Positions 14,046 through 19,509 of a stretch of DNA of 41,185 nucleotides are shown in pieces (position 1 is the first letter of the stretch; every line of letters begins with the position of its first letter). Both the position numbers and the translations under genes were made by a program. Location of the stretch: contig CANRAT010000002.1 in assembly GCA_947628685.1 (NCBI GenBank), forward strand, positions 1-41,185, read 5' to 3'. The notes below the pieces were generated by a model, which ran no database searches, had not been told where the DNA came from, and worked only from the letters and a program-made list of their open reading frames with translations. The DNA is from an uncultured Bacilli bacterium. GTDB lineage: Bacteria; Bacillota_I; Bacilli_A; RF39; UBA660.

Positions 14046-16580
14046 ATGAAGAAAAATATACGATTATATATATTAGTTTTTGCTTTAATATTTTTATGTG
14101 GAATAAATACTGTATGGGCACTTCCAGATTCATTTGAGGTAAAAAGTTTTGCTGAAGTGCATGGTTTACCAGAAACACACACTAAACCTACTGATTGTAA
14201 TTCAGATGAATGTTATGGTACAACATTAAAATTTTATGAAGACTCAAGTGGAAAAACAGGAGTTTTTTGTACATTGTTTGAAGAAACTTCCCCTGCTTGG
14301 AAAAATAATTCCACTTGTAAAATAACAGATCAATGGTCCGATTCTGTACGTTATTCGGTAGGACAGATAGTAAATGCGGTTATACCATCACTTGTATTAG
14401 ATGATACTTTGCATAATTCAGATGTAAAAAAGGCAACCATGTCAGCTTATCTTTCTGCAGAAATGGCATTAAATAGATTCCTATATGATATAGGTAGAGG
14501 AGATGAGACAATTGGTGGATGGAATATTTCCACATCTAAAATTTCAAAGGAATTAAACTCACAATATAGTACATACCTACAGACTGCTGAAAAAGCATAT
14601 TCTATTTATGATGGCGATAAAAATAAAATAAGTTTTAATACAAATTCATTAAGATTTACCTTAAGCGAGGATGGAGAATACTATAGCTCAAATGTTGTAA
14701 AAGTAACCGCTTATGGAAATGTAACATATAAGTTGGAAGGCGTAGATGGAACAATATACACACGTAATGATATGATTCAACTAAAAATTCCTTCAAAAAA
14801 TTTAAAAGATGATCAAACAACAACAATAACAGTTAAAGTAGAATCAACAAAGAGTTATGCATATGCAAGAAGATACTATTGTGGTGAAGAATATCAACCA
14901 GTAACTCCAATAGCTCTAGAATATGAGACAATAAATAGACAGGCACAAATAAGTGGTAAAATTACAAAAGAATCTCCAAAAGGGAAATTAATAATAAAAA
15001 AAGTTGATGCTACTACTCAAAAAATATTATCAGGTGCAACAATTACGGTAACAGGTCCAGATGATTTTTATGAAAGATTTACAACTAATGGAAATACTTA
15101 TGAAATAGATGGATTAGAATATGGAGAATATACTATAAAGGAAGAATATGCTCCATCAGGGTATGTCATTAGTGAAGGTACTCAAACTGTAACAATTGGC
15201 GAAAGTACTCAAACCATAACTGTAACATTAAAGAATAGTAAAAATAAAGTAAAATTTATAAAAGCAGATGAAAAAGGGAATCCTTTAGCGGGAGCGACAC
15301 TTGAGATACAAAATCTTTCGGGAGCTGTTGTTAGCTATTGTGGAGAAAATAGAAACAGTATTTGTAGATGGACATCGACAACAGATCCATATGAAGTATC
15401 AGGCTTGCCATCAGGTACATATTATTTTACTGAAACAGCTGCTCCAAAGGGTTATGTATTAAATTCAAGTAGGATAAGATTTACAGTAGGTAATGATGGA
15501 AAAATTTCAGTAAATGGAATTAATAAAGAAGATTTGACATTAAAATTAAGTGATGAATTAATAAAAATAATTATATCAAAAACAGATATAACAGGGAAAA
15601 AGGAACTACCAGGGGCAACACTTGAGATACAAGATGAAAAAGGAAAAGTAGTAAATTATTGTGGAGAAAATAGAACTAGTGCCTGCAGGTGGACTTCAAC
15701 GACAAAACCATATGAAATAGAAGGAATACCAGCAGGAACGTATTATTTAGTAGAAACAGTTGCTCCAGAAGGCTATGCATTAAAAAAAGAAAAAGTAAAG
15801 TTCACGGTAAAAGCAGATGGATATGTAAGAACAGTAACAATGACAAACTCACTAACAAGTATAAGATTTTCAAAAACGGATATAACAGGGAAAAAGGAAC
15901 TTGCAGGAGCAACACTCGAAATACAAGATGAAAAAGGTAATGTAGTAAATTATTGTATGGATTTAAAAGGAAATTATAATACAGCATGTAAATGGGTATC
16001 AACAGGAGATCCATACCAAATAGATGGACTACCAACAGGTACATATTATTTAGTAGAAACGATAGCTCCAAAAGGATACGTATTAAATAAAGAAAGAGTA
16101 GAATTTACAGTAACAGATGATGGAGTAATAAGAACAGTTGTAATGAAGAATAATATAAGAAAATTAAAGATAACAAAATATGATTCAACAGGAGTAAGAG
16201 AACTAAAAGGAGCAACATTGGAATTGCAAGATGAAGAAGGATATGTAGTAAATTACTGTAAAGGACAAGATGGAAATAATACGGCATGTAGGTGGGTATC
16301 AACAGATAAACCGTATGAAATAGAAGGATTGCCAGTAGGAGTATATTACTTAGTAGAAGTAGAGGCACCAGAGGGATATATTTTAAATACAGAAAAGAAG
16401 AAAATAGAAATAACAGAAGATGATGTTACTACAGAAGTAGGAATGACAAATGAATTAAAAGTAGATGTACCAGATACATTAAGTAGTAAATCCGCATTAT
16501 TACTAGCGATATCAATGTTTGATATAGCGCTTGGAATGGGGATAATAACATATGTCAAGAAAAATAGGATTGAAGAATAG
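14046..16580 (+). CDS. Cell-wall surface adhesin: N-terminal Cys-containing domain, 5 SpaA/CnaB-type prealbumin-fold repeats, VPDTL sorting-like signal
   Basis: Signal peptide (cleavage near VWA/LP). Five repeats of about 95-105 aa carry GATLEIQD...G.YYLVET.AP.GY. The C-terminus is VDVPDTLS, then a hydrophobic helix, then KKNRIEE. The ATG at 14046 follows GGTAGGTGG; the track starts at 14037. Confidence 0.85.
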   Translation: MKKNIRLYILVFALIFLCGINTVWALPDSFEVKSFAEVHGLPETHTKPTDCNSDECYGTTLKFYEDSSGKTGVFCTLFEETSPAWKNNSTCKITDQWSDSVRYSVGQIVNAVIPSLVLDDTLHNSDVKKATMSAYLSAEMALNRFLYDIGRGDETIGGWNISTSKISKELNSQYSTYLQTAEKAYSIYDGDKNKISFNTNSLRFTLSEDGEYYSSNVVKVTAYGNVTYKLEGVDGTIYTRNDMIQLKIPSKNLKDDQTTTITVKVESTKSYAYARRYYCGEEYQPVTPIALEYETINRQAQISGKITKESPKGKLIIKKVDATTQKILSGATITVTGPDDFYERFTTNGNTYEIDGLEYGEYTIKEEYAPSGYVISEGTQTVTIGESTQTITVTLKNSKNKVKFIKADEKGNPLAGATLEIQNLSGAVVSYCGENRNSICRWTSTTDPYEVSGLPSGTYYFTETAAPKGYVLNSSRIRFTVGNDGKISVNGINKEDLTLKLSDELIKIIISKTDITGKKELPGATLEIQDEKGKVVNYCGENRTSACRWTSTTKPYEIEGIPAGTYYLVETVAPEGYALKKEKVKFTVKADGYVRTVTMTNSLTSIRFSKTDITGKKELAGATLEIQDEKGNVVNYCMDLKGNYNTACKWVSTGDPYQIDGLPTGTYYLVETIAPKGYVLNKERVEFTVTDDGVIRTVVMKNNIRKLKITKYDSTGVRELKGATLELQDEEGYVVNYCKGQDGNNTACRWVSTDKPYEIEGLPVGVYYLVEVEAPEGYILNTEKKKIEITEDDVTTEVGMTNELKVDVPDTLSSKSALLLAISMFDIALGMGIITYVKKNRIEE

Positions 16581-16599
16581 TAAAATGCTATTCTTTTTT
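16574..16599 (+). terminator. Terminator after adhesin gene 1
   Basis: AGAATAG-taaaatg-CTATTCT stem followed by TTTTT; the stop codon lies in the stem. Confidence 0.55.
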
Positions 16600-18866: not shown

Positions 18867-19509
18867 TAGTATTTTACTAATAGGGTTGTTATTTATAGTA
18901 GTTGGTATTTGTATAGGATTTTATGAATACTTTACTGAAAGAAAAAAAGATGCATATGCACAGATGAATATTTTGTTATATAAGAATGAGCAACCGGGAA
19001 ATATAGAATCTGATGAAGAAATAAAAGATATAATCGAATCTGAAAATGGTGATGAAGATGAGCCTACAATAGAACAAAAGCCATCTTCGAATACACAATA
19101 TGATTATATAGGAATATTAGAAATTCCAAAAATAAAACTATCAAGAGGATTCTTAGATATTAATTCAAGATATAATAATGTTAATTATAATATAACAGTT
19201 ATAAATGGTTCGACATTTCCAGATGAAGTTAATAATAACTTAATATTAGCTGCCCACTCTGGTGTATGTTCTGTATGCTTTTTTGATAGGCTATATAATC
19301 TTGCAATTGGTGATGAAGCAAATATTTACTATAATAATATCGAGTATCAATATAAAATAGTAGATATATACGAAGTTGAGAAGACAGGTACAGTTGCAAT
19401 ACATAGAGATTCAAGTAAAAATACTTTAACTCTTATAACTTGTACAAGATACAGTAATACTAAACAAACAGTGTATATTTTAGAATTATATAATAAAAAA
19501 ACGTATTAA
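18838..19509 (+). CDS. Sortase-family transpeptidase (class not assignable), coupled to the adhesin genes
   Basis: 223 aa. N-terminal TM anchor, His motif LILAAHSG and Cys motif TLTLITCT. The start overlaps the last 29 nt of adhesin gene 2. Confidence 0.8.
   Translation: MLKRIKLKNSSILLIGLLFIVVGICIGFYEYFTERKKDAYAQMNILLYKNEQPGNIESDEEIKDIIESENGDEDEPTIEQKPSSNTQYDYIGILEIPKIKLSRGFLDINSRYNNVNYNITVINGSTFPDEVNNNLILAAHSGVCSVCFFDRLYNLAIGDEANIYYNNIEYQYKIVDIYEVEKTGTVAIHRDSSKNTLTLITCTRYSNTKQTVYILELYNKKTY

Follow-up and report, generated by a model that had tools for sequence, protein, structure and literature searches.

An arginine-less sortase encoded beside two VPxTL adhesins in an uncultured gut Bacilli bacterium

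Two surface adhesins of an uncultured gut Bacilli bacterium (GTDB order RF39; UBA660) end in V-P-(D/N)-T-L instead of LPXTG, and next to them is encoded a sortase with glutamine at the position aligned to the catalytic arginine of textbook sortases. The enzyme belongs to a large family for which no description was found in the literature searched, and which is followed in most loci by a five-helix membrane protein without family assignment, i.e., the unit is a substrate–sortase–partner cassette. The window analysed here is a stretch of 41,185 nucleotides (GCA_947628685.1, contig CANRAT010000002.1, positions 1 to 41,185 of the forward strand). We consider it likely, though still inferred in its biochemistry, that the cassette displays the adhesins on the cell surface through sortase-mediated anchoring.

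Results

Two tandem adhesins with a noncanonical sorting signal

Adhesin 1 occupies 14037/14046-16580 (847 aa counted from the GTG) and adhesin 2 occupies 16668-18866 (732 aa). The two are paralogues with the same head and sorting-signal layout, their heads being about 39-41% identical, and Pfam detects five SpaA (PF17802) stretches in adhesin 1 (E 8.6e-89) and four in adhesin 2. Counting residues from the ORF starts places VPDTL of adhesin 1 at 16467-16481 and VPNTL of adhesin 2 at 18753-18767, confirming the earlier note on both pentapeptides. The former is followed by SSKS, 21 hydrophobic residues and KKNRIEE (up to 16577), and the latter by SVRS, a hydrophobic segment and KKNKIEE. This corresponds to a tripartite cell-wall sorting signal, albeit with two deviations, namely a conserved Asp inside the helix (..SMFDIALG..) and two Glu at the very end; the hydrophobic segment is 21 residues long and not about 24, as the earlier note had it.

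The sortase gene (18838-19509, 223 aa) overlaps the adhesin 2 gene by 29 nt (18838-18866), such that the adhesin tail is coded on the same DNA as the sortase N-terminus MLKRIKLKNS, in another frame. A relic of the sortase 5' end (16552-16585; ATG at 16552, reading MSRKIGLKNS..) overlaps the end of adhesin 1 and marks the edge of the tandem duplication that made the two adhesin genes. In support of this, the two adhesin 3' ends align at about 85% identity through the stop codon and the sortase start region, with similarity decaying thereafter. Promoter-like sites precede both adhesin genes, TTGATA-17-TAAAAT at 13993-14021 and TTGATA-17-TACAAT at 16610-16638, the latter with TG before the -10 box. 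These share TTGATATATTTTT(T/A)ATATT, but their -10 boxes differ, in contrast to the near-identical promoters proposed in the earlier note. Moreover, they are consensus matches only, as the number of such sites in this AT-rich stretch is no higher than in shuffled sequence (48 found against 43.7 expected), rendering the promoter and terminator scan uninformative.

No Pfam match to the adhesin head was found at E up to 10, including to the thioester domain (TED, PF08341), nor was any solved structure matched by profile, and direct BLASTP comparison with a TED adhesin was only marginal. However, substrates of sister cassettes do match Pfam TED, and profile comparison relates the heads in the window to those heads (hhalign 98.2%). 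The Cys aligns, but the TQxAIW Gln motif reads AE(L/M)ALN; the head therefore appears derived from a TED but probably does not form the thioester. The overall architecture (signal peptide, head, CnaB/SpaA stalk, sorting signal) is that of class II thioester-domain (TIE) adhesins such as BaTIE (PDB 6FWV; PMC6194298, PMC8092201), with the difference that the described TIE proteins carry LPXTG.

A sortase that reaches no curated class cut-off

The 223-aa protein has an N-terminal membrane helix, an acidic linker and a catalytic domain carrying His140 (19255-19257) in LILAAHSG, a Cys144/Cys147 pair (CxxC), Cys202 (19441-19443) in TLITC and Gln210 (19465-19467). It matches Pfam Sortase (PF04203) at 52.7 bits against a cut-off of 26.6 and TIGR01076 at 54.8 against 39.35. 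An initial AlphaFold2 model built from 22 close homologues was unusable (pLDDT 57), but a second, with 58 more diverse rows, reached pLDDT 77 and has a sortase β-barrel in which strand β7 (residues 196-202) ends in Cys202 and strand β8 spans residues 209-222. Foldseek gave probability 1.00 to many sortase structures, matching class A, C, D and E enzymes about equally well (E about 1e-10), with the class A sortases of short β7/β8 loops from B. anthracis (SrtA, 2kw8), L. rhamnosus (SrtA, 7f87) and S. agalactiae (SrtA, 3rcc) on top. Relative to these class A enzymes, the signal is not LPXTG, the Arg is missing, and the gene sits next to its substrate rather than standing alone as a housekeeping gene.

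By sequence, the best HMM and solved-structure matches are class C (pilus-specific) sortases, e.g., E. faecalis Ebp SrtC (PDB 24rr) and S. agalactiae SrtC1 (4d7w), with which the enzyme shares the β-barrel fold, the His, the TLxTC Cys and dedication to an adjacent substrate gene. Of note, VPDTG is already known as the signal of the pneumococcal pilin RrgC, on which S. pneumoniae SrtC-3 acts (PMC5640630, PMC11231552), and many family members have signals starting with V-P-D-T. As adhesin 1 also just reaches the cut-off of the NCBIfam SpaH/EbpB major-pilin model (95.4 bits against 95), and as two substrate genes precede one sortase, the enzyme could conceivably be a pilus-type polymerase joining the two adhesins, or copies of one, into a fibre. 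We regard this as unlikely. The class C score (NF033745) is 67.2 bits against a cut-off of 160, none of 54 family sortases has a DP[F/W/Y] lid motif, and there is no C-terminal membrane helix, the protein ending 13 residues after Gln210. In addition, neither adhesin has a YPK pilin motif, most related cassettes have a single substrate gene, and the genome has no class A housekeeping sortase to anchor a finished pilus.

Class D sortases (C. perfringens SrtD, PDB 4d70; B. subtilis YhcS with LPDTS/LPDTA substrates) match at a similar level (44.7 bits) and are likewise small, N-terminally anchored enzymes whose signals have Asp at position 3 and a residue other than Gly at position 5. Yet they keep the Arg and read L-P-x-T-A/S, no five-helix partner has been described for them, and the class D (NF033746) and SrtD (NF058671) scores are 40.8 against 165 and 53.4 against 140, respectively. 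No class B model appeared among the NCBIfam matches, and the three class-B-like enzymes of this genome are separate genes encoding 285-290 aa.

Glutamine at the position of the catalytic arginine

HMMER aligns TKQTVY of this sortase to SKRYVV of B. anthracis SrtA (2kw8), placing Gln210 on the Arg; this is the only sequence alignment that runs through β8, since profile alignments to solved structures stop at the Cys. Gln210 is also the second residue of the modelled β8, and the catalytic Arg has been placed at the start of β8 (PMC11231552). The assignment thus rests on one pairwise alignment, the secondary-structure register of a model and a published description, with spatial equivalence being inferred rather than read from coordinates. 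A nearly invariant Arg190 or an invariant Lys182 in the β6/β7 loop could reach the active site and do the job of the Arg instead. By comparison, the SrtB-like gene in the window (32461-33324) does have the Arg, in GDGRVVVHAKL.

The Gln is not a local oddity. It is invariant in 120 of 120 close homologues and in the 52 of 53 genome loci whose sortase sequence reaches that position, and is present in nearly all of 150 representatives of 50%-identity clusters, with two exceptions seen (one Asn and one Tyr), as well as in four of five more distant paralogues. A cluster look-up of 10 distant representatives returned no organism or protein names. No conserved Arg could be placed at the active-site position, and the earlier note's suggestion of an altered catalytic triad is thus supported.

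Since the Arg is required for efficient catalysis in S. aureus SrtA (Marraffini et al. 2004, as cited in PMC11231552), the enzyme might alternatively be a pseudo-enzyme or a chaperone-like binder of the signal, with uncleaved adhesins anchored by their C-terminal helix. In line with this, the closest relative genome, of the same genus, has in the same slot a small protein with no P-x-T motif (ILPGEID..), and some relatives have proline-free signals. Nonetheless, this appears improbable: His, Cys and the TLITC motif are invariant across a family that diverges to about 36% identity, which would not be expected of a dead enzyme, and V-P-(D/N)-T is conserved just outside the helix in dozens of otherwise unrelated substrates. 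Replacement of Arg197 of SrtA with the neutral hydrogen-bond donor citrulline may also largely preserve activity, in which case an amide side chain could be enough.

The signal travels with the sortase

Almost every family member is preceded by a gene ending in [V/A/I]-P-[D/N]-T-x, a membrane helix and a basic tail. Specifically, 55 of 59 family sortases with enough upstream DNA have an abutting or overlapping gene that ends in xPx[TS]x, a helix and a basic tail, while five more have a proline-free V[E/N/D]DTA. The motif, the gene overlap and the Gln all recur across dozens of independent genomes. The conserved overlap and the abutting signal-bearing genes support the inference in the earlier note that the sortase is dedicated to these adhesins. 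That note had, however, proposed a motif in which Leu replaces the usual Gly; rather, the recognized core is V-P-(D/N)-T, position 5 is free family-wide (G, L, A, S, N, D, M), and Leu is the state of one subclade. The fifth residue tracks sortase clades, with all 14 Leu or Met signals falling in the one clade with the CxxC pair next to the catalytic His (SH-aLRT support of 95). The CxxC pair is not a sufficient cause of the Leu preference, as three members of this clade are paired with VPNTG or VPSTG signals.

The three class-B-like sortases of the genome sit next to similar signals that also lack Gly at position 5 (NPNTK-D, NPETL-D and, for the enzyme on the contig designated C13, VPDTY-D), and cross-processing is therefore possible. 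It could be envisaged that one of these enzymes processes the VP(D/N)TL signals, leaving the adjacent sortase with other targets, such as the IPATG/IPVTG proteins on a second contig (C61). There, three IPxTG proteins have no sortase gene on their contig, a 7.5-kb fragment, and a distant family member is paired with an IPETG signal. This scenario is the least likely of those considered, given that the gene overlap and the co-inheritance of VPxT-type signals with this sortase family hold in nearly every locus, and that signals next to the class-B-like sortases are followed by Asp, whereas those of this cassette are followed by Ser and by a distinctive helix (..AMFDIALGIGI..).

A co-conserved five-helix membrane protein

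Directly downstream of the sortase, 19525-20142 encodes a 205-aa membrane protein with about five predicted transmembrane helices and no Pfam or NCBIfam match even at E up to 10. A tblastn hit to this partner lies directly downstream of the sortase in 55 of 73 loci, including paralogues at 23-33% identity, and the gene is single-copy in this genome, like the sortase. Conserved residues are Y67, D76, Y87-F88-P89, Y94, N122, Y154, N156 and W173. A mobile-element origin for this copy of the cassette was rejected, as the flanking RluA-like gene is syntenic in 19 related loci and an 89-aa ORF in 17.

Discussion

We favour a model in which this locus is a chromosomal surface-display cassette of a small-genome (1.3 Mb, 26% GC), wall-bearing bacterium. 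Two tandemly duplicated adhesins, each with a Cys-bearing head that looks derived from a thioester domain and a stalk of isopeptide-type SpaA repeats, would be exported and held in the membrane by their C-terminal signals. The sortase, probably translationally coupled to adhesin 2, most likely cleaves after Thr through a Cys202 thioacyl intermediate, assisted by His140, and then transfers the adhesin to a peptidoglycan precursor. Gln210 would take the hydrogen-bonding role that Arg plays in all described sortases. The genome has 5 penicillin-binding-protein and 6 Mur-ligase matches, so a wall acceptor exists. The partner, the conserved residues of which are predicted to face outward, most likely acts with the sortase, for example by positioning the substrate helix or the acceptor. 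Cleavage, the scissile bond, the acceptor and the roles of Gln210 and of the partner are inferred, in the absence of biochemical evidence.

More tentatively, these cassettes could define a seventh, functionally distinct kind of sortase system, with (i) a natural His-Cys-Gln site that works without the Arg, (ii) recognition resting on V-P-(D/N)-T with a free leaving-group position, here Leu in a subclade that gained a Cys-x-x-Cys pair beside the catalytic His, and (iii) dependence on a dedicated five-helix membrane partner that may deliver the acceptor, or may itself be the acceptor through its conserved outward-facing residues. This remains a possibility that we cannot exclude.

Reviews describe six sortase classes, and each active site they give is a His-Cys-Arg triad; a large natural family with Gln at the Arg position offers a direct test of whether the Arg serves for charge or for hydrogen bonding. 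A family with a free residue after the scissile Thr could also widen the tools for sortase-mediated ligation, which today are limited by the Gly requirement, while the partner is an unannotated protein family that now has a testable functional context. The sortase family is present in 92 of 151 genomes of the order, with up to 4 copies per genome, and may serve there as the main non-class-B sortase. In this poorly known lineage of small-genome gut and rumen Bacilli, it appears to be the main route for displaying adhesins that bind their targets covalently, and is therefore relevant to how these uncultured organisms attach in the gut.

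Gene organization of the adhesin-sortase locus

Open reading frame analysis confirmed the genes described in the earlier note, i.e., adhesin 1 (14037/14046-16580), adhesin 2 (16668-18866), and a 223-aa sortase (18838-19509) that overlaps adhesin 2 by 29 nt. Counting of residues from the ORF starts placed VPDTL at 16467-16481 and VPNTL at 18753-18767, at the positions assigned in that note. Each motif is followed by four polar residues, then by 21 mostly hydrophobic residues containing one Asp (..SMFDIALGMGIITYV), and then by KKN(R/K)IEE. Pfam detected 5 SpaA stretches in adhesin 1 and 4 in adhesin 2, as well as a Sortase domain in the third protein. 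Every SpaA repeat of adhesin 1, and three of the four in adhesin 2, carries a strict E-box-like motif (YYLVETxAPxGY). The two promoter-like sites proposed in the earlier note exist at 13993-14021 and 16610-16638, and share TTGATATATTTTT(T/A)ATATT; however, such sites are no more frequent here than in shuffled sequence, and we thus accord them little weight.

The 3' ends of the two adhesin genes are about 85% identical through the stop codon, with adhesin 1 still carrying a relic of the sortase start (ATG at 16552) in the same 29-nt overlap position. The two adhesin genes therefore arose via a tandem duplication that included the first bases of the sortase gene. The KKNxIEE tail is coded on the same DNA as the sortase N-terminus MLK(K/R)IKLKNS, in another frame. 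This coding of the adhesin tail KKNKIEE and the sortase N-terminus MLKKIKLKNS on the same 29 nt, at 18838-18866 and in the equivalent overlap in relatives, may explain the unusually constant acidic end of the sorting signal.

A sortase family with Gln at the inferred position of the catalytic Arg

The sortase passes the generic sortase models but no class model, with NCBIfam scores of 67 bits for class C (cut-off of 160), 53 for SrtD (cut-off of 140), and 41 for class D (cut-off of 165). HMMER comparison with solved structures gave class C, class D, and B. anthracis SrtA as best matches, with the one alignment that runs past the Cys placing Gln210 on the Arg of 2kw8 (TKQTVY against SKRYVV). 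An AlphaFold2 model built on 58 diverse rows (pLDDT 77) has strand β7 at residues 196-202, ending in Cys202, and strand β8 at residues 209-222, such that Gln210 is the second residue of the latter; the catalytic Arg has been placed at the start of β8 (PMC11231552). Foldseek matched class A, C, D, and E structures about equally. The spatial equivalence of Gln210 with the Arg is inferred, and a nearly invariant Arg190 and an invariant Lys182 in the β6/β7 loop remain candidates for a compensating role.

The Gln is a feature of the family. It is invariant in 120 of 120 close homologues, as well as in the 52 of 53 loci from species-representative genomes whose sortase sequence reaches that position, down to 36% identity. 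It is also present in nearly all of the 150 best representatives of 50%-identity clusters, with one Asn and one Tyr as exceptions, and in four of five still more distant paralogues. An exhaustive search counted 111 clusters at E up to 1e-30 and 845 at E up to 1e-10. The reviews retrieved describe six sortase classes and give a His-Cys-Arg triad for each active site that they describe; in the literature searched, we found no description of an arginine-less sortase family. Of note, a segment just after the membrane helix (residues 43-53, about 18964-18996), reading MNILLYxNExP, is nearly invariant in the close clade, although it lies in front of a variable acidic linker. It could be a lid-like or partner-binding element.

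Co-occurrence of the sorting signal with the sortase

Across 76 distinct family sortases in the retrieved loci, 59 have at least 1.5 kb of upstream DNA. Of those, 55 have an abutting or overlapping upstream gene that ends in xPx[TS]x, a helix, and a basic tail. Five more have a proline-free V[E/N/D]DTA. The fifth residue of the signal is free, with counts of G 19, L 13, A 10, S 6, N 4, D 2, and M 1. On a tree of the catalytic domains, position 5 changed at least 17 times but clusters by clade, with all 14 Leu or Met signals lying in one clade of 23 sortases (SH-aLRT 95). That clade is also the only one with a Cys-x-x-Cys pair three residues after the catalytic His, a pair that was gained once. 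Three members of the clade are paired with G signals, and the CxxC pair is thus not sufficient for Leu. VPDTG is already known as the RrgC signal in pneumococcal pili (PMC5640630); the new elements are the free fifth position, Leu in particular, and the enzyme that goes with it.

A conserved membrane protein encoded downstream of the sortase

The 205-aa ORF at 19525-20142 starts 16 nt after the sortase stop, and displays about five hydrophobic helices, with no Pfam or NCBIfam match; nor did we find a description of this protein in the literature searched. A tblastn search revealed a homologue immediately downstream of the sortase in 55 of 73 loci, including paralogous cassettes at only 23-33% identity. 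The gene is single-copy in this genome, as is that of the sortase. The conserved residues of the protein are Y67, D76, Y87-F88-P89, Y94, Y154, N156, and W173. From the positive-inside rule, we infer that these fall in loops and helix ends on the outer face of the membrane, which is where the sortase domain and the signal motif sit. The conserved unit is therefore substrate(s), then sortase, then membrane partner. The next genes (the 89-aa ORF and the ClpX-like gene) are syntenic only in close relatives and are not part of the cassette.

Genomic context and sorting mechanism

The genome is 1.29 Mb, 26% GC, and 92% complete, with 5 penicillin-binding-protein matches and 6 Mur-ligase matches, indicating that a wall acceptor exists. 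The sortase family is found in 92 of 151 genomes of the same order, with up to four copies per genome, yet it appears in only 14 of 399 genomes sampled across the phylum, 12 of which belong to the window's own taxonomic family. Record titles name uncultured Bacilli, Tenericutes, or Erysipelotrichaceae genomes assembled from metagenomes of rabbit, sheep, goat, deer, mouse, and human gut.

The best-supported reading is one of standard sortase chemistry, in which a Cys202 thioacyl intermediate forms after Thr and the adhesin is transferred to a peptidoglycan precursor. Gln210 would supply the hydrogen bonds normally given by Arg, and the partner would act as a membrane co-factor. Alternatively, the sortase may be a pilus polymerase; this is argued against by the lack of a lid, of a pilin motif (neither adhesin having a YPK motif), and of a housekeeping sortase. 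That no cleavage occurs at all is argued against by the invariant His, Cys, and TLITC, and by the conserved V-P-(D/N)-T.

A further possibility is that the signals are processed by class-B-like sortases; this is argued against by the conserved gene overlap and co-inheritance. The genome encodes four sortases, i.e., this one and three class-B-like enzymes. The class-B-like enzymes sit next to NPNTK-D, NPETL-D, and VPDTY-D substrates. One of them (32461-33324, plus strand), which has the Arg, is divergently paired with a 216-aa protein (31748-32398, minus strand) ending in NPNTK-D, a helix, and KRS. Other signals next to class-B-like sortases in the genome are NPETL-D (contig C34) and two NPNTY-D (contig C26); residues other than Gly at position 5 are therefore the rule in this organism. 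On contig C13 of the genome, at about 9094-9963 (minus strand) and 10071-11231 (plus strand), another of the three reads ..LSTCFNDTDKVVLHAKL, with Lys where the other two have Arg (GDGRVVVHAKL and YGNRIVVHAKL), and sits next to a 387-aa protein ending in EEVPDTY-D, a helix, and KKKKEN. This may be a second departure from the catalytic Arg in the same genome.

On a short contig (C61, 7.5 kb), two complete proteins of about 1120 aa and one fragment cut by the contig end finish in IPATG-G or IPVTG-G, a helix, and a basic tail. No sortase gene is on this contig, and the genome has no class A sortase. As a distant member of the Gln family is paired with an IPETG signal, this family may also serve xPxTG signals.

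Adhesin heads and variability of the adhesin slot

Substrates in sister cassettes are thioester-domain (TED) plus SpaA adhesins. While the heads of adhesin 1 (14046-15000) and adhesin 2 (16668-17600) do not reach Pfam TED, a profile comparison with TED-positive heads gave 98.2% probability. There, the TED Cys aligns with Cys75, while TQxAIW aligns with AE(L/M)ALN; the heads therefore look derived from a TED but have probably lost the thioester. Cys75 and Cys91 are invariant in this head type, which suggests a disulfide in place of a thioester. A third paralogue of the head sits in an 856-aa protein (contig C1 of the genome, 43509-46076, minus strand) that has no C-terminal helix or sorting signal. 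Specific to the window are (i) Leu at position 5, (ii) the CxxC subclade, (iii) the duplicated adhesin pair with the relic sortase start, and (iv) the apparently TED-derived heads without the Gln motif.

In the same syntenic slot, relatives carry between zero and two adhesin genes of very different sizes. The same-genus genome (7896-8408 of its retrieved locus, L054) carries only a 166-aa protein with one SpaA repeat in place of the two large adhesins, which ends in ..KESILPGEIDSSTALIIFIGMVDISIGIVMLIYVKKSKNKR (ILPGEID..), with no P-x-T motif, and still overlaps the sortase start. The slot is thus a fast-evolving adhesin site beside a stable sortase-partner pair.
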